DNA of 64,000 nucleotides from Bacillota bacterium (GTDB taxonomy: Bacteria; Bacillota_I; Bacilli_A; RF39; UBA660). Below, piece by piece: positions 98 through 59,312 of the stretch (position 1 is the stretch's first letter; each line of letters begins with the position of its first letter). The stretch covers positions 14,017 to 78,016 of the forward strand of contig SVAM01000006.1 of assembly GCA_015059425.1 (NCBI GenBank), given 5' to 3'. The notes beneath the pieces are model-generated. The model was not told the DNA's origin and did no database searches. It worked only from the letters and a program-made list of their open reading frames with translations. The position numbers were made by a program, and so were the translations under genes.

Positions 98-124
98 AAA
101 AAGTATTGTTAACAATACTTTTTA
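96..124. terminator. Bidirectional rho-independent terminator between convergent genes
   Basis: Perfect palindrome aagtattgtt/aacaatactt (101-120), flanked by an A-run upstream and a T-run downstream. Confidence 0.7.
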
Positions 125-820
125 ACTAAATAAATAACTAATTAATACAGGAGCAAGTATAATAAGCATCATAATAGGCACAAAAAATATAACACTTATT
201 ACACTAACTTTTGTGGGTAATTTTGCTATTTCAGCTTTAACATCTAACATTTGTTTTTCTCTTAAATAATCTATTTGAGTGTACATAGAATCTATAATAC
301 TATTTCCAAAAGTATTTGATTGTATCATATTAAGTATAGCATTATTTATTGTATCACTTGGAATTCTTTTTTTCATCGCTTCTAAACTTTCATTTAGGCT
401 TTTGCCAAGATTTACTTCTGCTAAAGTTTTTCTGAATTCTAAAGAAATTTCTGAATCTATATTTTCTGTTGTTAAATTAAGCGCATGTTTTAAACTTCTA
501 CCGCTTTCTAATGTTAAAGCTAATACTTCAAAAAAGAATAAAGCTTCTTTTTCTAATTTTTTTATTCTTTTCTTTACTGGATAATCGAGTACAATATATT
601 CTAATGTAAAATAGAATATTAATGATAATCCTAAAGCTAATATATAACCATATTTAGAAAATATTAAAGTTATAATAAATATACTTACTGTTAATAACAA
701 TCTTACAGTTAGAAAATCAAATGTATTATATGTATTATAAATTCCTAATAATTTAATTTTACTATCTATTTTTAAAATGGTTTTTTTAGGATAAATTTTA
801 TTTAATAAATTATTTTTCAT
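122..820 (-). CDS. tadC: Tad pilus inner-membrane platform protein, TadC-like (type II secretion system F family)
   Basis: Polytopic membrane protein with a central soluble T2SS-F-like segment. It overlaps the TadB-like gene by 4 nt and is last in the CpaF-TadB-TadC order. Confidence 0.7.
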   Translation of the reverse strand: MKNNLLNKIYPKKTILKIDSKIKLLGIYNTYNTFDFLTVRLLLTVSIFIITLIFSKYGYILALGLSLIFYFTLEYIVLDYPVKKRIKKLEKEALFFFEVLALTLESGRSLKHALNLTTENIDSEISLEFRKTLAEVNLGKSLNESLEAMKKRIPSDTINNAILNMIQSNTFGNSIIDSMYTQIDYLREKQMLDVKAEIAKLPTKVSVISVIFFVPIMMLIILAPVLISYLFS

Positions 821-1812
821 AATTCCACCCTTAAAACTTTCTTTATAACTAAAATATATAAAATATATAATAATATAGTAAATACTAAAACAATTATTCC
901 AAAAGGTGTAGTAATCATTGGGTTAAAATAAGTTGGGTTTAATATGAAAATAATAGATATTAATATAAAAGGCATTGCTACTAACATTTTAAATACAAAA
1001 TTACTAGATGCTGTTAAACTATTTAGTTCGTTTTTTAAATTCTTTTTATCAAATATTGATTTTTCAATCATAGAAAATACTTTTACAATATCTCCACCTG
1101 TTTTATTAAGTAATGTTAATGATGAAGTAATATATTTTGCATCTTCTAACTCTACTCTTTCATAAAATCTTTTAAAAACTAAATCCAAATCTAGTCCATA
1201 AGTAATATCAAGATATATTTTTTCAAACTCATCTTGAATTGGTCCTTTAAGCTCTTTTTTTACAGTTTCTACCGCTTGTATAATATTTCTACCACTACTA
1301 AAAGCATTGTTCATAATTATTATAGCTTTTAGTAAATCTTCTTCTACTTTTTTTCTTTTTTTAGAATATTCTATATTAAGCATAATATCTGGTATAAAGA
1401 AACTTATAATAAATATTGTTAGTAAGAACATAAAATCTATATTTATTTCATGAAACATTTGAGTTATAAAACTAAGAACTATAACTATAAATCCTAATAA
1501 TAATTTTATAGATATATAATCCATTCCCTCTTTTTCATTTCTATTTTCATATGAAATATATTTCTCATATTTTAAAGCATATTTTTTTAATATTTCAGAT
1601 TTTATTAAAATTTTAGATAACTTTTTTATTATCTTAGAGATATTTTCATAAAGATTATCAAATAAAGATAATTCATTATCTTTATTTGATACTATTGAAA
1701 AAGGTGCAATTCTTTTTTCAAGTTTTACCGCACGATAAAGACGAAGTAAATATAGTATTACTCCAATAACTAATAATATTAAGAAAATTTGTAATATTTT
1801 TACTCCATCCAT
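817..1812 (-). CDS. tadB: Tad pilus inner-membrane platform protein, TadB-like (type II secretion system F family)
   Basis: N- and C-terminal TM segments flank a soluble T2SS-F-like domain. The gene sits immediately downstream of the CpaF ATPase. Start moved to ATG at 1812 (MDGVKIL), which has a GGGTG RBS. Confidence 0.7.
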   Translation of the reverse strand: MDGVKILQIFLILLVIGVILYLLRLYRAVKLEKRIAPFSIVSNKDNELSLFDNLYENISKIIKKLSKILIKSEILKKYALKYEKYISYENRNEKEGMDYISIKLLLGFIVIVLSFITQMFHEINIDFMFLLTIFIISFFIPDIMLNIEYSKKRKKVEEDLLKAIIIMNNAFSSGRNIIQAVETVKKELKGPIQDEFEKIYLDITYGLDLDLVFKRFYERVELEDAKYITSSLTLLNKTGGDIVKVFSMIEKSIFDKKNLKNELNSLTASSNFVFKMLVAMPFILISIIFILNPTYFNPMITTPFGIIVLVFTILLYILYILVIKKVLRVEL

Positions 1813-1828
1813 ATTAACACCCAAATCT

Positions 1829-3271
1829 TTATTTTATTCCGTCATATTTGCCTTTATCTGCAATAACTTTTGTTTTAACTGTTTTTTCTTCTGTTTCTTT
1901 TTTAGTAATTTTTTTTACTTTTTCCTCAGTTATTTTTTTTGTTTTTTCAGGGAAGAAAATATCATCAATATCTTCAATTCCTCTGGCTTTTATTTTCTTA
2001 TAAACACGAGGTATCCCTTCATATAATGTAAATTCTCCATCTACTTCACCAGTTTCAGTTAAGCCAAATTGATTGAAAGCAAATATTTCTTTTAATTTAA
2101 TTTCTCCGTTTTCATATCCTTCAATTTCAGAAATACTTGTTACTTTTCTTCTACCATCGCTCATTCTTTCAATATTAACTATTAAATCAATTGCACTAAA
2201 AATATATTCTCTAATTGCTTTTATTGGTATTTCTATTCCACCCATTAAAACCATTGTTTCTAATCTATTTAATGCATCAATTGGTCCATTAGCATGCATC
2301 GTAGTTAATGAGCCATCATGACCTGTATTCATTGCCTGTAACATATCAAAAGCCTCTTTACCTCTAACTTCTCCTACAACAATTCTATCAGGTCTCATAC
2401 GTAGGGAATTAATTACTAAATCACGTATAGTAATTTCATTATCATTACCATAATTTGTATTTCTTGTTTCTAAAGATATAACATGACTTTGATTTAATTT
2501 TAATTCCGCAGCATCTTCTATAGTAATTATACGTTCATTATCTCCTATAAAGCCACTTAATATATTAAGTAATGTTGTTTTACCAGAACCTGTTCCTCCA
2601 CAAATAATCATGTTACATTTTCCTCTTACCGCAGCATCTAAAAATCTTGCCATGTAAGGTGTTAAAGTACCTATTCTAATAAGTTCATCTATATTAGACA
2701 TAGATTCTCTAAATTTACGAATTGTAACTACCGGTCCTTTTGTTGATAAAGGAGGAATTACAGCATTAATTCTTGAACCATCAAGTAATCTTGAATCTAC
2801 CATTGGATTATTTGAATCAATAGTTCTACCTACTGGACCAATTAATCTTTGAACAGTTCTTATAATATGTTCATCATTAATAAATGAAACACTATCATCA
2901 CGAGAAATTACACCATCTATTTCAATATACACTTCATTAGGAGAATTTACCATTATTTCTGTAACATTATCGCTATTTAATAATTCTGTTATTGGTCCAT
3001 AGCCATTTATCTCATTATCTATTAAATTAAATAAATGGCTGCGTTCTAAATTTGATAGATCATAACCCTCTATCGCTTCATCAATCTTTTCATTTACCCA
3101 TTCATTTAAAGAAATATTGCTAGGCATATCATTATCAATTAAAGACTCTACAATTTCTGTTCTAAACTTATCTAATAATTTTTTATCTTGAAATATTTCA
3201 TAGTCGCTTAGAATATTTATATTTTTTTGCTTTATTTTAATATCAAAAGCTTCTCTTAAAGTTTGTTTCAT
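1829..3271 (-). CDS. cpaF: CpaF/TadA family type IV filament secretion ATPase
   Basis: Walker [14 protein letters not shown], Asp box [10 protein letters not shown], Walker B/His box [12 protein letters not shown]...[12 protein letters not shown]. These are typical of the VirB11/CpaF family. Confidence 0.95.
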
Positions 3272-4029
3272 TATTCTTCCTCCTTATACATATCAGTTAT
3301 TATTTGCATAAGAGTTGTATAATCTTTTGAAAAAGTAAGTGGAGCTTTACTATCTAATGTAATAATTTTGCCATTCATAACAAATGTATCAATGTTTTTA
3401 ATAAAGAAATCTTTACTTATCACATAGTCAATATTTGCTTTGATAATATTTTTTATATCGTATAGCCCAAAATATTTTTTAAATGGAGATATACTTTCAT
3501 TTAAAATAATTTTGTAATTATCATAATTAACATCTTTTAATATAGCAATTAAACTTCGCATGTTTTTTAAATCCAAAGGATCATTTGTAACTATAAATAA
3601 TAGATTATCTACTAAATCCATAGTTAAGATATTAAAATCATCTAAATTATGATTTGTATCTATTAAAACAATATCATAATTATATACCGCTTTATCTAGA
3701 ATTAGTTCAACATATTTTGGATCTATTTTCCCTGCTTGTCTAGGGTCTTTAGGGCTTGCCAAAACATCAATTGAATCATCATAACTTACTACATAATTTT
3801 TAAAATCTTTATAACGATTATTATTATAATCATCAACAAAATTATAAACACTTCTTGGTGATTGTAAATTTAAGGCTGCACTAATACCTCCACCGGCAAG
3901 ATCAAAATCTACAATTAAAACTTTTTTATTTAAAGTTTCAAATATACCAGCTAGATTTAAAGTAGTAATAGTCTTCCCTACTCCACCTTTAGCAGATGAT
4001 ATACATATTGATAATCCTTTATTCTTCAT
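3271..4029 (-). CDS. TadZ/CpaE-like ParA/MinD-family ATPase (pilus assembly localisation factor)
   Basis: Deviant Walker A SSAKGGVGKTITT, then VLIVDFDL. The gene abuts the cpaF start codon. Confidence 0.85.
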   Translation of the reverse strand: MKNKGLSICISSAKGGVGKTITTLNLAGIFETLNKKVLIVDFDLAGGGISAALNLQSPRSVYNFVDDYNNNRYKDFKNYVVSYDDSIDVLASPKDPRQAGKIDPKYVELILDKAVYNYDIVLIDTNHNLDDFNILTMDLVDNLLFIVTNDPLDLKNMRSLIAILKDVNYDNYKIILNESISPFKKYFGLYDIKNIIKANIDYVISKDFFIKNIDTFVMNGKIITLDSKAPLTFSKDYTTLMQIITDMYKEEE

Positions 4030-4046
4030 TTTTATTCACCCTCTAA

Positions 4047-4412
4047 TTATTCAAATATTACTCTTTCATTTTGATATTCACCAATAATATTAATTTTTAT
4101 ATCATATTCTGTAATACCAATTATTGAGCCAAATACACTTTTAATACTTATTTTATTTTTTATTTCGATTTTTTTATTTATTTTATTTATTTCTAAATTA
4201 TCTATTAAAATATCGTTTTTTATAAATAATTCTTTAGCTTCACTTTCATTAATTTTATCTTTTAATAAATCTTTAATAACCATTTTAGTTACTTCTTCAA
4301 TATGATTTTTCTTGTTAGTAACTATGCCTGTATCCACAATAATAGCCATTAAAATAATTATTAATGGAATTAATAAAACAAACAAAACTAAAGTTTGACC
4401 ATGCTTATTCAT
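4047..4412 (-). CDS. TadE/TadG-like minor pilin / pilus assembly protein
   Basis: N-terminus MNKHGQTLVLFVLLIPLIIILMAIIVDTG resembles the TadE/G-like N-terminal helix. Located inside the Tad operon. Confidence 0.6.
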   Translation of the reverse strand: MNKHGQTLVLFVLLIPLIIILMAIIVDTGIVTNKKNHIEEVTKMVIKDLLKDKINESEAKELFIKNDILIDNLEINKINKKIEIKNKISIKSVFGSIIGITEYDIKINIIGEYQNERVIFE

Positions 4413-4749
4413 TTATTATACTCCTACTTATTTCTAATTTATATGGATTATTAAAAATTAAATTTAATCCTGGAGTAATAAGCTCTATTTCTTTAATAAG
4501 TTTTACATTTGTATATTCTTTATCATTGTTAATAACTATGGAATATTTGTTATCTAATTTTAACTTATTTTTGATATCTTCAACATTATCATTTTTTTCA
4601 TAATAAGTAACTACATCAGATATAACATCTTCCACAACAATTTTAGAATATAAAATCTTACCAATATCTATAATTCCTAATAATAACATTATAAAAATTG
4701 GTAAAATAATAATAAATTCAACTAAAGCTTGTCCCTTTTTATTCATCAT
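4405..4749 (-). CDS. TadE-like minor pilin
   Basis: N-terminus MMNKKGQALVEFIIILPIFIMLLLGIIDIG matches the G/QALVEF prepilin-type motif of TadE proteins. Confidence 0.7.
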   Translation of the reverse strand: MMNKKGQALVEFIIILPIFIMLLLGIIDIGKILYSKIVVEDVISDVVTYYEKNDNVEDIKNKLKLDNKYSIVINNDKEYTNVKLIKEIELITPGLNLIFNNPYKLEISRSIINE

Positions 4750-4773
4750 ACTACCCCTTTTTTAGATTTTAAG

Positions 4774-4983
4774 TTACTCAGTTTTTTTATCTAAATCACC
4801 ACTACAATATGCTTCTCCAGGCTTATTTCCTTTAAAATATTCTTCATCAACTAAACTACATGAAGTTTTAGTTATTGCATCTTTTAAATACCCACCTAAA
4901 TAGTTAACAAGTGATATTGCAATTACACTTATTAATGCAATAATAAGAATATATTCAACTAAAGCTTGTCCTCGCTTATTCAT
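4774..4983 (-). CDS. flp: Flp family type IVb pilin (major Tad pilin)
   Basis: MNKRGQALVEYILIIALISVIAI contains the Flp motif G/xxxxEY followed by a hydrophobic helix. Start moved to the internal ATG at 4983, which has an AGGGTGA RBS. Product is 69 aa with 2 Cys in the tail. Confidence 0.85.
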   Translation of the reverse strand: MNKRGQALVEYILIIALISVIAISLVNYLGGYLKDAITKTSCSLVDEEYFKGNKPGEAYCSGDLDKKTE

Positions 4984-5006
4984 AACTTTCACCCTTATCA
5001 TAAATA

Positions 5007-6784: not shown

Positions 6785-7504
6785 TTATTTAATTTCTATA
6801 TCTTCATATGTATTTATCTTTTCTTTATTTATTTTACTATCTTTAATAAAATATTTATATTCTTCTATAATATTTTTCTTTTTAGTACTTTTATCCTCTA
6901 AAACATATAATTCATTATCTTTAATTTTGACTAAATATAAATCATCATCTTTTTTATATGAATCTAATAAATCAGATATATACTCTTTATTATTAAACAA
7001 AATTATACCATTTTTATCTGAAACTAATTTTCCATTATCATCAAAAATGAAATACTTTTGTAAAACATTATCTTTTTTATAACCAATTTTGATTATTAAA
7101 TAATCTTTATCTGTACTTATAATTTGAAAGCTTTTTTCATCAAACCCTATTATATTAAAAGTATTTTTATCTTTTGTTAAATCCTCTAAAAAACATTTTT
7201 CACAATCAAGTACATCTTGTTTTATAATTAAATTCCCATCTAAATATATATTTAAATCAACATTATTTTTTTCTTCATCAACCATATATTCTAATTTAAC
7301 TTTGTACTTTTCTTCATTTAAGTAAATATTATATATTTCTGCTAAAATATTATTAGATAAATTAGAACTTACTTTAACAATCGTTTTTGTTACTTTTTGT
7401 GTTGTTTCTTTTTTTACTCCTGCATTAAAAAGAATAAAACCAGTATATCCTATAATACTTGTTAAAGCTACAAATAAAATAATCATACTAATTATTTTTT
7501 TCAT
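6785..7504 (-). CDS. Membrane-anchored hypothetical protein
   Basis: N-terminal signal/anchor MKKIISMIILFVALTSIIGYTGF followed by a Lys/Asp-rich soluble domain. No motif recognised. Confidence 0.5.
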   Translation of the reverse strand: MKKIISMIILFVALTSIIGYTGFILFNAGVKKETTQKVTKTIVKVSSNLSNNILAEIYNIYLNEEKYKVKLEYMVDEEKNNVDLNIYLDGNLIIKQDVLDCEKCFLEDLTKDKNTFNIIGFDEKSFQIISTDKDYLIIKIGYKKDNVLQKYFIFDDNGKLVSDKNGIILFNNKEYISDLLDSYKKDDDLYLVKIKDNELYVLEDKSTKKKNIIEEYKYFIKDSKINKEKINTYEDIEIK

Positions 7505-7554
7505 AAAAAAGCTCCTTTTCTGTTATATTATATCAACAATCTAATATTTTTAAA

Positions 7555-7584
7555 ACAAAAAAGTTACTATTTTTAATAGTAACT
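7555..7584 (-). terminator. Rho-independent terminator closing the pilin-like operon
   Basis: Hairpin agttactat/atagtaact (7562-7584), followed on the minus strand by a T-run. Confidence 0.65.
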
Positions 7585-8585
7585 TATTTAAAAATATTAA
7601 AAAGTTTGGTTTTATTAGAATTACTTCCATTGATTCTTGAAAAACCTAAAGCAACTAGGAAATCATCAAGCACTTGTATATGTTCTTTTTTATCATCAAC
7701 ATATGGTATATTGTAGAATACTTTACTGTCTGCCTCATGTTCAAAATCACTAATATCTTTACTTGTCAAAATACTTTTATTTAATATAATCTTTTTATCT
7801 TTTAGCTTTTCAAAAGCCTCTCGATCTTTACGAATTAATTTATTAAGTTTGATTAACCCAGGTTCTATGAGATAAACCACATCATTACATAGTTTTTCTT
7901 GCATTGAATCATTCAAATCTAATAAAATTACTTCTGCTTCAGGATGATTAGCTATATTAAAAGATAAATCTTGAGATATAGTAGATTGCAATGATTTATC
8001 ATTTAGATATTTAAAATCTTCACTATCAACTTCTATAGCAACAACATTATAAGCTACTTCTAAATGTTTTTTCAACATATAAACCAATGTAGTTGCACCA
8101 GCATGAGCAGTCACATTTTTAAAACCAATTATTCTTAAGCCGCCACTTGCAGTAGTAGAAGAAAATGTATCAATCCCAACAGACTCCATGTTAATTTCAT
8201 TTCCATTTAAATTATGATATTGCGCAACATCTTTATAAGAATTTGGATTATCTATTAAAAATTTAACAGCATTTATATTACGTGTAAAATTATAAATTCC
8301 CATTGATACTAATTGTGATAAATAAGCACCACTATTAACAGCGGCGGAATCATCAAGTAACACAATTATTTTACTTGTATCAAAATTAACGGATAATTTT
8401 TGAATATTTTTGATATTTTGATATCCTTTAATAGCAGTTAAATCTATAATCATTTTATTAAAATAAAAATTTGTAAACACACTAACTAACTCTTCAACAT
8501 CAAATTCGCCAGTAATTGTTTTTATAACATCAATATTTAATGTTCCAAGCATATTTTGATATTTATTAGAAACTATTACGTTCAT
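7584..8585 (-). CDS. TadZ-like protein: receiver-like N-domain plus ParA/MinD-like domain with degenerate P-loop
   Basis: The C-terminal half, RIIGFKNVTAHAGATTLVYMLKKHL..NVVAIEVDSED...VILLDLND, aligns with the KGGVGKTT..VLLVDLD pattern. The P-loop reads AHAGATT, with no GK[ST] lysine. The N-terminal ~120 aa has an alternating beta/alpha receiver-like pattern (..IIDLTA..KIIVLLDD). Confidence 0.5.
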   Translation of the reverse strand: MNVIVSNKYQNMLGTLNIDVIKTITGEFDVEELVSVFTNFYFNKMIIDLTAIKGYQNIKNIQKLSVNFDTSKIIVLLDDSAAVNSGAYLSQLVSMGIYNFTRNINAVKFLIDNPNSYKDVAQYHNLNGNEINMESVGIDTFSSTTASGGLRIIGFKNVTAHAGATTLVYMLKKHLEVAYNVVAIEVDSEDFKYLNDKSLQSTISQDLSFNIANHPEAEVILLDLNDSMQEKLCNDVVYLIEPGLIKLNKLIRKDREAFEKLKDKKIILNKSILTSKDISDFEHEADSKVFYNIPYVDDKKEHIQVLDDFLVALGFSRINGSNSNKTKLFNIFK

Positions 8586-8599
8586 TATGTCCCTTCTTT

Positions 8600-9088
8600 C
8601 TACTTACTATAATTATTATCATATCGAGGCGTATCATCATTAGAGTGAAAACTAGATGTAGTGCCTTTTATATTAAATTTAGAAGCATCACCTATAACAG
8701 GTAGATTAAAACTATAAAATAAAGTAATTTGATAATAATTTGTTAAATTAGGTGCTTTAAATTTTTTTACACAGTAATAATAATCCACACCATTTTCTGC
8801 TTCAACTAAATTTTTAGCATCTAAATCTACAGCGCCATAAACACCGCTTACTCCATCTTCACTTACGCATTTTGATTTAGCAATATAGCCATTTCTAATT
8901 AAATAATTATTTACTAATGAAATTGATTTATCATTTAAACCTTCATTTTTTTCAATCATAGTTAATATTTCATTTTTCTGTTTAACTACTTTATTATAAT
9001 TTATAGTTAGTACAATAAATCCAACAAAAAGTAGTATAAATAAAATCATTAATTGTAATAACCATGTAGTTCCTATTGACTGACGCAT
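8600..9088 (-). CDS. Pilin-like protein P4 (putative minor pilin, paralogue of P3)
   Basis: Leader MRQSIG followed by the hydrophobic helix TTWLLQLMILFILLFVGFIVL. Shares ..KC..EDG.., YYCVKK and F.LPVIG...F.IKGTT with the 9120-9596 product. 2 Cys. Confidence 0.5.
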   Translation of the reverse strand: MRQSIGTTWLLQLMILFILLFVGFIVLTINYNKVVKQKNEILTMIEKNEGLNDKSISLVNNYLIRNGYIAKSKCVSEDGVSGVYGAVDLDAKNLVEAENGVDYYYCVKKFKAPNLTNYYQITLFYSFNLPVIGDASKFNIKGTTSSFHSNDDTPRYDNNYSK

Positions 9089-9119
9089 ATTTCACCACCA
9101 TCTAATTATTAAAGTTTTT

Positions 9120-9596
9120 TTATTCATTAGGCGAATAAATTTTAGGTGTCTCACCTTTTACTGAAAATCTAAATAATTGCCCTATAATAGGTAGATCAAA
9201 TCTATAAAATACTTCTACTTGATAATAAACCACATTATTAAATTCTGAATTTCCAGCAGATATACTTTTTACACAAAATGCTACATTTTTATTTGGATCA
9301 TCAATTCTTAAACCATCTCTACCAAAGCCAATCCAACCATCTTCACATTTTCCACTATTTTGATAATTAACTTCTTTAAAATAATCCTGAATTTGAACAT
9401 AAAAATTATAACAAACTACATTAGTAGGATCATTTGAAGTACATATCCCATTTTGATTTTTAATAATATTTATAATTTCGTTTTTTATATTATATGCCTT
9501 AGAATAGTTAATTGATATACTTACATAACCTGTAAAAAGTAGCACAAATACAATAACAATGTTAAATAATGAAAAACCACCAATTGATTCTTTCAT
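9120..9596 (-). CDS. Pilin-like protein P3 (putative minor pilin)
   Basis: Leader MKESIG followed by the hydrophobic helix GFSLFNIVIVFVLLFTGYVSI. C-terminal FDLPIIGQLFRFSVKGET. 4 Cys. Confidence 0.5.
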   Translation of the reverse strand: MKESIGGFSLFNIVIVFVLLFTGYVSISINYSKAYNIKNEIINIIKNQNGICTSNDPTNVVCYNFYVQIQDYFKEVNYQNSGKCEDGWIGFGRDGLRIDDPNKNVAFCVKSISAGNSEFNNVVYYQVEVFYRFDLPIIGQLFRFSVKGETPKIYSPNE

Positions 9597-9615
9597 ATAG
9601 CCACCCCTTTAAAAA

Positions 9616-9858
9616 TTAACCTTTCCAAGCGCATGTAATTTCTTTCGTGCTTCCCTTTGCACGACAAGTATAGTCCTTACATACTCCACCTTCATAAGTT
9701 GGATCATTACACACACATATCGCTTCATCACAAGCAGTATTATTATCTAAATTAGCTTTAATTGTAGGCCATAAATAGCCAAAGAAAAAAAGAGACAACA
9801 TAGCTACTATAATTGCCACTATTACAGCTGCATTAAGTTCACCTGTAGCCTCTTTCAT
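9616..9858 (-). CDS. Small Cys-rich pilin-like protein P2 (80 aa)
   Basis: Leader MKEATG, then ELNAAVIVAIIVAMLSLFFFGYLWP, then a 6-Cys tail. Strong GGAGG RBS. Confidence 0.55.
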   Translation of the reverse strand: MKEATGELNAAVIVAIIVAMLSLFFFGYLWPTIKANLDNNTACDEAICVCNDPTYEGGVCKDYTCRAKGSTKEITCAWKG

Positions 9859-9887
9859 ATTCTTTTACCTCCTAAAAATAAATTATG

Positions 9888-10160
9888 TTACCCACCCATT
9901 CCTGGTAAATCTACTGCACCTTCATTTTGTTTATCAAAATATGACTTACAATTTAAGCCAGTTTGTTCCGTACCATCTTTATCCATATATTCACAATTTT
10001 GATAGTTTTCGTCACATCCATAAGCTTGTGAACAATAAGTACTTGTGTTTATAGAGTTTCTAATCCCTGGCCAAACAAATGCATAAAAGAATGCAGCTAC
10101 GGCAGCTATTGCTACAACTGTAACAACTGTCATATTTAATTCTCCAGTTGCTTCCTTCAT
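9888..10160 (-). CDS. Small Cys-rich pilin-like protein P1 (90 aa)
   Basis: Leader MKEATG, then ELNMTVVTVVAIAAVAAFFYAFVWP, then a 4-Cys tail. GGGAGGA RBS. First gene of the operon. Confidence 0.55.
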   Translation of the reverse strand: MKEATGELNMTVVTVVAIAAVAAFFYAFVWPGIRNSINTSTYCSQAYGCDENYQNCEYMDKDGTEQTGLNCKSYFDKQNEGAVDLPGMGG

Positions 10161-10193
10161 AAATAAATTCCTCCCTTTATTTTATATATTATT

Positions 10194-10222
10194 ATTATAA
10201 CTAATTTTTTTTTAAATATCAA
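10194..10222 (-). promoter_or_regulatory. Near-consensus sigma-A promoter of the pilin-like operon
   Basis: Minus strand reads TTGATA-17 nt-TATAAT, about 35 nt upstream of the P1 start. Confidence 0.6.
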
Positions 10223-10280
10223 TAATGACATTTATATTTTGTAAAACTTATATAAAATCATTGTCTACAATTATGTTTTT

Positions 10281-10991
10281 ATGATAATATTAATTAAGAA
10301 TAGAGTTGATAATATGAATAGTGAAAAGTTAAAAATAATATTAGATAAAACAAAAAGTATTTTAATTGGTATAGGAACTATTTTATTATATTTTTTTGTA
10401 GCATTAATAGGAAATATGATTTTTGGTAAATACTATAAATCAAGTAACTTAGTTATTGCTACCTTATCTCAATTAGGTACGTATGCTCTTATATTATTAA
10501 TTCTAGTAATTATATATCATAAAAAACTTATAATAGATGCTAAAAACTTTAAAAAGGAATATTTTGAGGTTGCTATTAAAAATTGGATTTTAGGATTAGG
10601 AATAATGATTATTAGTAACATAATAATAACTACATTTACTAATGATATATCTGTTAATGAAGCCGCTAACAGAGAATTATTAATGACCTATCCCATAAGT
10701 AATATAATTTCAATGGTAATTATTGGCCCTTTTATCGAAGAAATAACTTTTAGATTATCTTTTAAAAAAGCTTTTACTAAATGGTATACCTTTGCACTAG
10801 TAACTAGTATATTATTTGGGTTAATGCATATCGCAGATTTTAAATTACTAGAATTTTTTTTTATAATCCCTTATGGCGCTTTAGGTTTCTTCTTTGCAAA
10901 AGCAATGTATGAAACAGATAATGTATTTACATCATTTATAGCACATATGATACATAATGCTATATGCGTTGTAATAATATTATTATTTTAG
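10281..10991 (+). CDS. CPBP family intramembrane glutamic endopeptidase (CAAX protease-like)
   Basis: Polytopic protein with motifs GPFIEEITFR, FGLMH and FIAHMIHN (the EExxxR / FxxxH / HxxxN triad of the CPBP family). The start could instead be the ATG at 10314. Confidence 0.8.
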   Translation: MIILIKNRVDNMNSEKLKIILDKTKSILIGIGTILLYFFVALIGNMIFGKYYKSSNLVIATLSQLGTYALILLILVIIYHKKLIIDAKNFKKEYFEVAIKNWILGLGIMIISNIIITTFTNDISVNEAANRELLMTYPISNIISMVIIGPFIEEITFRLSFKKAFTKWYTFALVTSILFGLMHIADFKLLEFFFIIPYGALGFFFAKAMYETDNVFTSFIAHMIHNAICVVIILLF

Positions 10992-16056: not shown

Positions 16057-16142
16057 TGGTGCTTGTGGTGGGACTTGAACCCACACGAACTCGCATTCGC
16101 CAGATTTTGAGTCTGGTGCGTCTACCATTCCGCCACACAAGC
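16057..16142 (-). tRNA. tRNA-Leu (anticodon CAA), class II with long variable arm, CCA encoded
   Basis: Reverse complement GCTTGTGTGGCGGAATGGTAGACGCACCAGACTCAAAATCTGGCGAATGCGAGTTCGTGTGGGTTCAAGTCCCACCACAAGCACCA. Acceptor GCTTGTG/CACAAGC, anticodon loop CTCAAAA. Confidence 0.93.
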
Positions 16143-20967: not shown

Positions 20968-21041
20968 GGGGCTTTAGCCAAGTGGTAAGGCATGGGACTG
21001 CAACTCCCCGAGCACCGGTTCAAATCCGGTAGGCCCCTCCA
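20968..21041 (+). tRNA. tRNA-Cys (anticodon GCA), CCA encoded
   Basis: GGGGCTTTAGCCAAGTGGTAAGGCATGGGACTGCAACTCCCCGAGCACCGGTTCAAATCCGGTAGGCCCCTCCA. Anticodon loop CTGCAAC, T-arm ACCGG/CCGGT. Confidence 0.92.
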
Positions 21042-48020: not shown

Positions 48021-48095
48021 TGGTGCTGGAAAGAGGATTTGAACCTCCGACCTACGTATTACGAGTACGTTGCTCTACCCCTGAGCTATTCCAGC
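48021..48095 (-). tRNA. tRNA-Thr (anticodon CGT), CCA encoded
   Basis: Reverse complement GCTGGAATAGCTCAGGGGTAGAGCAACGTACTCGTAATACGTAGGTCGGAGGTTCAAATCCTCTTTCCAGCACCA. Anticodon loop CTCGTAA. Confidence 0.92.
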
Positions 48096-59104: not shown

Positions 59105-59275
59105 CTCCTAAAATAAAAAAGTGGTACTATCAAGGGCGAATTAATCGCGGTACCACCTTTATTTATTACTTTATTAGTCTTTAAGGGAACTATCCCACAT
59201 ACTCTAAAAAGCAAGTTCATAATCTTTTACGTTAATTTTCACCAACCATTAACTCTCTATAGGTAAAATTAATTA
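59105..59275 (-). promoter_or_regulatory. T-box riboswitch leader (probable Leu specifier)
   Basis: The minus strand contains AGAGAG..GGTGAAA (stem I elements) and GAACUUG (candidate CUU specifier at 59213-59215). It also has the T-box core AAAGGTGGTACCGCG (59146-59160) and a terminator GTGGTAC...GTACCAC plus T-run that competes with it. Confidence 0.75.
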
Positions 59276-59312
59276 CTACTACTCTTTTTTTCAACGTATT
59301 TATCATATTTTA

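Follow-up and report, generated by a model that had tools for sequence, protein, structure and literature searches.

An operon of four pilin-like proteins and a TadZ-like one in gut Bacilli: candidate parts of a highly divergent Tad-like filament

A 64-kb stretch of contig SVAM01000006.1 from a bacterium of the RF39 group (the window, in what follows) carries on its minus strand an operon of five genes, which we call P1 to P5. Our hypothesis is that P1-P4 are subunits of a type IV filament which is Tad-like but highly divergent and specific to this lineage, with P5 as its TadZ-like organiser. Judging from sequences and structural models we consider this the probable explanation, while leaving a substantial share of belief to others. 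Several observations suggest it. P1-P4 are predicted to be single-helix proteins with the N-terminus inside and a small residue at a fixed position, and P1 joins an invariant helix to a hypervariable tail. Two small and two larger paralogues occur as a fixed set, universally linked to a TadZ-like protein. Finally, in the majority of relatives this set is linked to a secretion ATPase, a CpaB-like protein and two proteins like TadB and TadC. The P1-P5 families are widespread and undescribed.

The five open reading frames (ORFs) are closely packed between 10222 and about 7552, each preceded by a Shine-Dalgarno sequence. P1 (10160-9888, 90 aa) has the head MKEATG/ELN, one hydrophobic helix and a variable tail with four Cys. 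P2 (9858-9616, 80 aa) has the same head, six Cys and the C-terminus C-x-W-K-G. P3 (9596-9120, 158 aa) starts with MKESIG/G, followed by a transmembrane helix and an ectodomain that is modelled as alpha/beta. Its paralogue P4 (9088-8600, 162 aa) starts with MRQSIG/T; alignments give the two an identity of 33-34%. P5 (8585-7584) is a protein of 333 aa, predicted to be cytoplasmic, whose model resembles TadZ. An earlier note, made from the letters of the window, had read this segment as five co-directional genes from 10160 down to 7584, the first four beginning with MKEATGELN (twice), MKESIGGFS and MRQSIGTTW and continuing into a single hydrophobic helix. All these ORFs and N-termini are present, and one transmembrane helix is predicted at residues 8-29 in each of the four proteins. 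The synonymous codon differences between the leaders of P1 and P2 are real as well. For comparison we used 84 fetched loci (L001-L084), whose ORFs were labelled by BLAST against reference proteins.

P1 and P2 belong to a family of 1895 clusters at 90% identity, none of which is informatively named. Its N-terminus, taken from 144 unique sequences, is M-K-E-A-T-G-E-L-N-M-T-V, with Gly6 in 137 of them, Glu7 in 138 and Asn9 in all 144. The two proteins form distinct orthologous groups, and the C-x-W-K-G end is kept in P2. Residues 1-33 of P1 have a mean identity of 89% across 72 species; the remainder, the tail, has 19%. Such a conserved head with a variable tail likens P1 to major pilins and makes it the candidate major subunit. 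The even Cys count noticed earlier holds in this small family (153 of 154 members). Known pilin profiles do not recognise these proteins. P1 gives nothing significant against the Pilin_N and Class_IIIsignal hidden Markov models (HMMs) of Pfam (E 0.43). P1 and P2 have no PF04964 match, and hhalign gives a probability of 4% when they are compared to the Flp protein of this genome. With the VirB2-like pilin PF18895 there is likewise no Pfam match, the hhalign probability is 5%, and one helix is present rather than two.

The family of P3 and P4 is also large: 1556 clusters at 50% identity (E <= 1e-3), and among the matches listed all start at residue 1. Position counts were made on 148 representatives at 50% identity. 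Position 1 is Met in all 148, position 2 Arg or Lys in 145, and position 3 Glu in 120 and Asp or Gln in 16. Ala or Ser follows in 140 and Ile or Val in 119. At position 6 there is Gly in 123, Ser in 14, Ala in 10 and Asn in one, so that Gly, Ser or Ala occupies it in 147 of 148. Hence the expectation that Gly6 is kept is borne out in the small family, while among relatives of P3 and P4 it holds for 123 only, the rest having Ser or Ala and once Asn. The rule of even Cys numbers does not extend to this family either: P3 has four Cys and P4 two, and two Cys are invariant, but odd totals are common. An AlphaFold2 model of P3, with a predicted local distance difference test (pLDDT) score of 85 and a predicted template modelling (pTM) score of 0.75, contains a helix of 45 residues (4-48), a second helix (60-76) and a four-stranded sheet. 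As modelled, P3 has the general architecture of a pilin, although a Foldseek search of the PDB gives it no significant match.

The N-terminal consensus of P1-P4 is M-[KR]-[EQ]-[AS]-x-[G>S/A]. All four proteins have what characterises type IV pilins in general, a short charged leader ending in Gly and a hydrophobic helix of about 20 residues behind it. They lack the [FM]xxxE mature end with Glu at +5; the mature ends predicted for them are ELNMT, GFSLF and TTWLL. The canonical motifs G/FxxxE and G/xxxxEY, which the earlier note had already found missing from P1-P4, are indeed absent.

P5 is the most constant member of the set. It was found in 85 of 85 loci, so that the linkage to a TadZ-like gene, on which the earlier note had made its proposal depend, is as tight as it could be. 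The family comprises 6031 clusters at 90% identity, and no transmembrane helix is predicted in P5. Its AlphaFold2 model (pLDDT 78) consists of a flavodoxin/receiver-like domain (1-116), a disordered linker and a SIMIBI-type NTPase domain (150-320). In Foldseek searches the model matches ParA, MinD, HypB and BcsQ at E of about 1e-3 and template modelling (TM) scores of 0.4-0.55, and the two-domain IcmF at E 7e-7. It also matches the Eubacterium rectale structure 3fkq over both domains (E 5e-3, probability 0.94). The PDB title of 3fkq is 'NtrC-like two-domain protein'; we take it to be TadZ. The Walker A motif of P5 is HAGATT, and the family pattern is G-x-x-N-x-T-x-x-A-G-[AS]-T-T, without the lysine of GK[ST]. 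No sequence matches to P5 were found in Pfam, NCBIfam or PDB with either the single sequence or a profile, and the hhalign probability against the TadZ of this genome is 1%. Going by the model, then, P5 has the architecture of TadZ/CpaE and lacks membership of that family at the level of sequence.

A scan with one genome per species revealed relatives of P5 in at least 430 genomes. All hosts are uncultured gut organisms known from metagenome-assembled genomes of the 'Bacilli', 'Tenericutes' or 'Mycoplasma sp. CAG:776' type, presumably of an RF39-like lineage; one named genus among them is filed by NCBI under Bacilli incertae sedis. Where the source gives the P1-P5 families any name, it is 'hypothetical protein'. 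The earlier note had suspected that the four proteins belong to unannotated families, and none of them has a match in Pfam or NCBIfam. Two small genes, two mid-size genes and P5 occur together in 63 of 68 loci, and the mid-size pair co-occurs in nearly all loci.

Among related genome loci 70 are informative and 12 are truncated. In 46 of the 70, and in most of 80 metagenome loci, the gene order is DUF5411, one or two CpaB-like genes, an ATPase, two polytopic proteins and then P1-P2-P3-P4-P5. We call this arrangement type A. Here DUF5411 begins with M-[KR]-E-S-Y-W-G and resembles the head of P3 and P4, and therefore an M-[KR]-E-[AS] head is common to up to five genes per cluster. Beyond the start the resemblance fades: for P3/P4 against DUF5411 the hhalign probability is 10%, over the N-terminus only, and P1-P4 have no PF17424 match. 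The earlier note had allowed that some unknown machinery assembles the four proteins, and the block that directly precedes them in these 46 genomes is a good candidate for it. Thus a TadA-type ATPase lies beside the pilin-like genes in 46 related loci; in the window there is only the canonical TadA. It follows also that the description 'self-contained operon' is appropriate within the clade of our organism alone, since in most relatives P1-P5 are the distal part of a longer cluster. The operon in the window is a detached fragment of that larger conserved cluster.

Pfam assigns the type A ATPase to the T2SSE superfamily (1e-27). Scores below the cut-off are obtained with each of the models for VirB11, TrbB, TadA-like, FlaI and ComGA proteins, and the best match of the ATPase in NCBIfam is VirB11. 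It is related to the TadA of this genome with an hhalign probability of 99.6%, at an identity of only 26%. With 2e-10 the match of the CpaB-like protein to TIGR03177 stays under the cut-off of that family. In their transmembrane layout the two polytopic proteins agree with TadB and TadC of this genome, and hhalign detects no similarity of one polytopic protein to the other. It is from position and topology alone that we label them 'platform'. Comparison of the new families by hhalign with Flp, TadE, TadZ, TadB and TadC of this genome, along with the two ATPases, related only the ATPases to each other.

An additional gene heads the type A cluster in 42 loci (e.g. L027 1169-4075). It codes for a secreted protein of some 1000 aa that has a signal peptide, contains much Ser and Asn, and is not matched by Pfam. 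This protein could be an adhesin of the system.

If our hypothesis is correct, the machine might work in the following way. P1-P4 would insert into the membrane with their short N-termini in the cytoplasm and their C-termini outside. The hexapeptide would be cut off behind the small residue at position 6, or else be recognised at the membrane in some other manner. An ATPase of the VirB11/TadA superfamily, acting on a membrane platform of two proteins, would extract the subunits and stack them via their N-terminal helices; the CpaB-like protein would be a further part of the machine. P1 would be the major subunit, offering an invariant helix for packing and a disulfide-bonded hypervariable tail, with P2 as a second small subunit. 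P3 and P4 may be minor, priming or tip subunits because, unlike P1 and P2, they have no Glu after Gly6. Some minor pilins of type II secretion systems (T2SS) and type IV pili also have no Glu5, and the role suggested for P3 and P4 is drawn from this analogy. P5 would position or dock the machine, as TadZ/CpaE does. Among these steps cleavage, polymerisation and the roles of single subunits, as well as a dedicated motor encoded elsewhere in this genome, are our inferences.

Several findings weigh against a filament. Searches with the Flp, TadE, class III signal peptide and N-methyl pilin profiles of Pfam, hhalign against Flp and TadE of this genome, and Foldseek with the P3 model place none of P1-P4 among known pilins; on this point the reading of the earlier note is not supported. 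The P3 model has nothing significant among PDB structures by Foldseek: the best E is 0.28, the TM scores do not exceed 0.3 and no pilin is found, the top rows being levivirus coats and LptE at TM of about 0.25-0.3. P3 and P4 have no match to the TadE family PF07811 (hhalign probability 1.7%). In the two platform-like proteins a T2SSF signature was detected by neither Pfam, hhalign nor PDB profiles, and when the members of the TadC-like family were scanned one by one, Pfam gave no T2SSF match. The hexapeptide is fixed in length and as conserved as the helix behind it, which is unusual for a leader that is to be discarded. The leaders cut by A24 peptidases vary among paralogues. Since the hexapeptide is atypical in this respect, readings in which it is a docking tag, or is handled by something other than an A24 peptidase, are kept alive.

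Another such finding is that in relatives the cluster continues into genes like those of type IV secretion systems (T4SSs), and the machine may therefore be something other than a simple pilus. VirB2-like genes related to PF18895 directly follow P5 in 41 of the 54 loci that are not of type B (the arrangement of the window, described below) and have enough room after P5. Further downstream there are TrbL/VirB6-like, PrgI/VirB3-like and VirB4-like genes. By its gene content this chromosomal T4SS-like block, joined to a Tad-like block, is reminiscent of the T4SS of Patescibacteria. The PF18895-like arrays after P5 share a QKEDEIKKGQQ motif (L001 11481-20462, also L027, L033, L034, L036 and L045).

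Taken together, these findings can be put into a different explanation: P1-P4 would be uncleaved single-pass parts of an envelope-spanning apparatus of the secretion or conjugation type. Either P5 or the ATPase would dock to the hexapeptide as a tag, and the ectodomains would form a static structure across the wall. The VirB2-like genes that so often follow the block, the VirB11 preference of the ATPase, the unmatched fold of P3, the lack of an A24 peptidase nearby, and a start of fixed length, M-[KR]-E-[AS]-x-[GSA], conserved like the helix in P1/P2, P3/P4 and DUF5411, would all be natural in such an apparatus. Yet the invariant helix and hypervariable tail of P1 are what one would sooner expect of an exposed polymer subunit than of a buried structural part, and in the clade of our organism the block stays intact without adjacent T4SS genes. 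To our knowledge, the known T4SSs of monoderms also lack CpaB-like, TadZ-like and paired TadB/C-like proteins. On balance we regard this explanation as unlikely.

One more suggestion combines elements of both. The hexapeptide could be a new N-terminal signal of pilins, fixed in length and either cut by something other than an A24 peptidase or not cut at all. The machine would then be one whose platform has diverged beyond recognition, fused with a T4SS into a composite contact apparatus. The signal may be carried by three families (P1/P2, P3/P4 and, in relatives, DUF5411), that is, by five genes per cluster. If it is not cut, the subunits could be leaderless, with Glu3 or Glu7 replacing the classical Glu5. 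We may thus be dealing with a filament machine that in most genomes is joined to a seemingly relaxase-less T4SS with VirB2-like arrays, in gut symbionts with reduced genomes. This is a tentative suggestion, and we would not expect it to be right, although it deserves to be kept in mind.

How do these considerations affect the cleavage step of the filament hypothesis? A regular expression for the A24-like motif GxGD found nothing in the ORFs of the window or of loci L001-L084, and for the 10 kb that adjoin the window on its left the precomputed annotations list no Peptidase_A24; both results count against the hypothesis. An A24 peptidase is nevertheless very probably encoded somewhere in this genome, because its canonical substrates are present in the form of Flp (MNKRG/QALVEY) and TadE, and because relatives carry KGFTLIE pilins. 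Just upstream of P1-P5, three loci (L043 5251-7319, L053 6372-6815, L055 12025-13986) have genes for classical type IV pilins with KGFTL[IV]E or for ComG-like proteins; therefore a conventional prepilin system exists in those lineages too.

We now turn to the arrangement found in the window, which we call type B and which is shared by 22 genomes. Genes for PAP2, LCP and metallophosphoesterase-like proteins and a divergent CPBP gene come before P1-P5; a gene for a 239-aa protein, Obg and a canonical Flp/Tad locus come after. These housekeeping flanks show conserved synteny, and therefore P1-P5 are chromosomal and vertically inherited. An origin of the operon from a mobile element was considered and rejected for the same reason. 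Two loci, L043 and L053, have P1-P5 with neither the motor block nor the type B genes upstream.

The canonical locus at 122-5001 on the minus strand encodes Flp, two TadE-like proteins, TadZ, TadA, TadB and TadC and is complete for the monoderm type. Flp (4774-5001, MNKRG/QALVEY) matches Pfam Flp_Fap at E 9e-6 with 25.8 bits, below the cut-off of 32.2. The TadE gene at 4405-4749 has a Pfam match at 5e-11, and the two TadE-like genes overlap by 8 nt. TadZ has AAA_31/ParA matches and a normal GKT Walker A. TadA (1829-3271) matches PF00437 T2SSE, TadB and TadC match T2SSF, and TadA-TadB-TadC together occupy 122-3271. The locus is 2.6 kb away from the P1-P5 operon, and the two are adjacent in all six type B loci that extend far enough.

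In the window a tblastn search with the dedicated motor block found nothing but the distant TadA; the lack of this block, too, counts against the filament hypothesis. Beyond the left end, 10 kb contain FeoAB, RmuC, LexA and M16 peptidases and no motor. DUF5411 is likewise absent from the window, and PF18895-type genes are absent within 64 kb. One way to deal with these absences is to suppose that the neighbouring canonical Tad machine (122-3271) assembles P1-P4. It would have replaced the ancestral motor, and the peptidase that processes Flp would cut MKEATG/E as well. Such a takeover would explain why no other ATPase and platform genes are found nearby. It would also fit the fact that in every one of the six loci long enough to tell P1-P5 share the strand of Flp-TadE-TadE-TadZ-TadA-TadB-TadC and precede that locus by about 2.6 kb, and that both sets of proteins have leaders of 5-6 residues ending in Gly. 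But the Tad locus already owns its Flp, its two TadE-like proteins and a TadZ with a regular GKT motif, and the two ATPases, at 26% identity, are far apart. Moreover, the P5 of the window is 58-65% identical to P5 in fetched genome loci where it stands beside a dedicated motor (a three-sequence alignment gives 53% to L001 and 56% to L004), which suggests that its partner has been retained.

There is also precedent for a split layout. In at least eight metagenome loci from at least two clades, a scan with the TadC-like profile revealed a motor block of DUF5411, CpaB-like protein, ATPase and two membrane proteins behind which unrelated genes stand instead of P1-P5, and so a separated motor is an established alternative. 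The contigs with detached blocks are L113, L115, L140, L148, L150, L151, L155 (L164 being doubtful), L108 and L104. In L108, and in L104 with about 500 bases of room, a VirB2-like gene directly follows the motor block, which is a mirror image of the arrangement in the window. None of these detached blocks could be linked to our organism. We moderately favour a dedicated motor block elsewhere in this genome over a takeover by the canonical Tad machine, because P5 remains so similar to its motor-adjacent orthologues, detached motor blocks exist and L043 and L053 carry P1-P5 alone. The takeover itself we consider improbable, if by no means absurd.

Transcription signals are present at both ends of P1-P5. 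A promoter reading TTGATA, 17 nt, TATAAT (10194-10222, minus strand) matches the consensus at 11 of 12 positions. By itself the match is weak proof because such matches are equally frequent in shuffles of this 25% G+C genome: 41 were found and 36 are expected from shuffled sequence. Better evidence comes from aligning the upstream regions of the orthologous operons in about 20 related genomes, where the two hexamers and the AAAGGAGG ribosome-binding site do not vary while the flanks diverge, so that the near-consensus promoter of the earlier note can be kept. So can its terminator: a hairpin with an 11-bp A+T-rich stem and a U-run (7552-7590, minus strand; RNAfold free energy -10.5 kcal/mol) overlaps the stop codon of P5. 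The scanner overlooked it because it has fewer than three G-C pairs. In most orthologous type B upstream regions a second conserved block, TTT[TG]AC-AAAAT, is seen about 20 nt upstream of the -35 hexamer (about 10240-10255 in the window). This block might serve as an operator or UP element, or might belong to the divergent CPBP promoter. Rfam shows no regulatory RNA near the operon.

The divergent gene itself (10281-10991, plus strand) encodes an intramembrane protease of the CPBP/Rce1 type (PF02517, 4.5e-14). It adjoins the operon in the window and in all 22 type B loci whose upstream sequence is long enough, which makes 23 copies; in type A this is so in only one of 46 loci (L028). This neighbour might lead one to think that P1 and P2, being small and rich in Cys able to form disulfides, are exported peptides of the bacteriocin or signalling kind, which the CPBP protease matures or neutralises. 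We find this hardly credible, for the persistent adjacency within the clade all but vanishes in the other arrangement. Besides, the hydrophobic segment of P1 and P2 is no leader but a complete transmembrane helix, and no part of the protein is better conserved; the dominant signal is the linkage to P5 and, in most relatives, to the cluster of ATPase and CpaB-like genes. As the adjacency is limited to this clade, a general link of the CPBP protease to P1-P5 was set aside.

Directly after P5 there is a gene for a single-pass membrane protein of 239 aa (6785-7504, minus strand), a putative associate of P1-P5 which has no Pfam or NCBIfam match. It comes next after P5 in the window and in the 21 type B loci that extend far enough beyond P5 (22 copies), and never in the other arrangement. 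The gene has an apparent promoter-like site of its own at 7554-7527 with a TG extension. Elsewhere in the window, and unrelated to the operon, are a T-box leader (59129-59303, minus strand), whose 94.8 bits slightly exceed the gathering score, and three tRNA genes (16060-16142, minus; 20968-21038, plus; 48024-48095, minus).

Why should these proteins be of interest? They form large unannotated families in uncultured, low-GC Bacilli with reduced genomes, which are common in the guts of humans and animals and whose surface biology is almost unknown. If the filament hypothesis is correct, a new class of pilins with a very divergent motor and platform would join the type IV filament superfamily, and surveys based on HMMs would be missing whole systems in monoderms. 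It would also provide a concrete candidate for the means by which these organisms attach to hosts or partner cells. The hypervariable, presumably exposed tail of P1 suggests diversifying pressure from host or phage, and the fixed hexapeptide offers a handle on how far the recognition of prepilins can diverge.

We know other systems to which P1-P5 can be compared. Archaeal type IV pilins with class III signal peptides, which are cut by PibD or EppA, have very short leaders with Gly, Ala or Ser at -1 and do not require Glu at +5. The Gly, Ser or Ala at position 6 of P3 and P4 resembles this, but the host here is bacterial and the remaining machinery is Tad-like rather than archaeal.

Among bacterial systems, one with DUF5411, CpaF and PilC/GspF was predicted in gut Clostridia (Miller et al. 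2022, PMC9523054). Common features are DUF5411 beside a CpaF-like ATPase, Gram-positive gut bacteria as hosts and many neighbours that cannot be annotated. The differences are that PilC/GspF is recognisable there, that the P1-P5 families are not described there and that DUF5411 is not in our window. In the uncultured gut order TANB77 a Tad-like cluster consists of CpaB, TadZ/CpaE, TadA and a fused TadC-TadB, followed by short one-helix proteins that are called pilin-like from context only (PMC11680825). That lineage and its families are different ones, the machinery can be recognised there from sequence or structure, and a common hexapeptide is not reported (PMC11680825). T4SSs of the monoderm type with VirB2-like (PF18895) arrays are described from Patescibacteria and from integrative and conjugative elements of Mollicutes (PMC12102498). 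Our relatives resemble them in the PF18895-like arrays and the VirB6-, VirB3- and VirB4-like genes after P5, and in having reduced genomes; P1 and P2, however, are not members of PF18895, and the window lacks such genes within 64 kb. Literature searches on DUF5411, on RF39 with pili and on PF18895 found no description of the P1-P5 families.

The most extensive likeness is to the Tad/Flp pilus (type IVc). Both have a small (candidate) major subunit accompanied by larger pseudopilin-like proteins, short N-termini ending in Gly and a single hydrophobic helix. In relatives of our organism the parallel extends to a T2SSE-superfamily ATPase, a CpaB-like protein, two proteins with the topology of TadB and TadC and a two-domain TadZ-like protein. 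On the other side, P1-P4 have no Flp or TadE match by HMM or profile and no G/xxxxEY, the platform-like proteins of the P1-P5 cluster do not have the T2SSF signature, and P5 does not have the deviant Walker A lysines. The fixed and conserved N-terminus of six residues, the Cys-rich tails and the T4SS-like genes that are contiguous in relatives set P1-P5 apart as well. Membership at the level of sequence thus fails for Flp, TadE, T2SSF and TadZ. Nevertheless, the Tad/Flp pilus is the closest system known, and the two probably work in a similar way.

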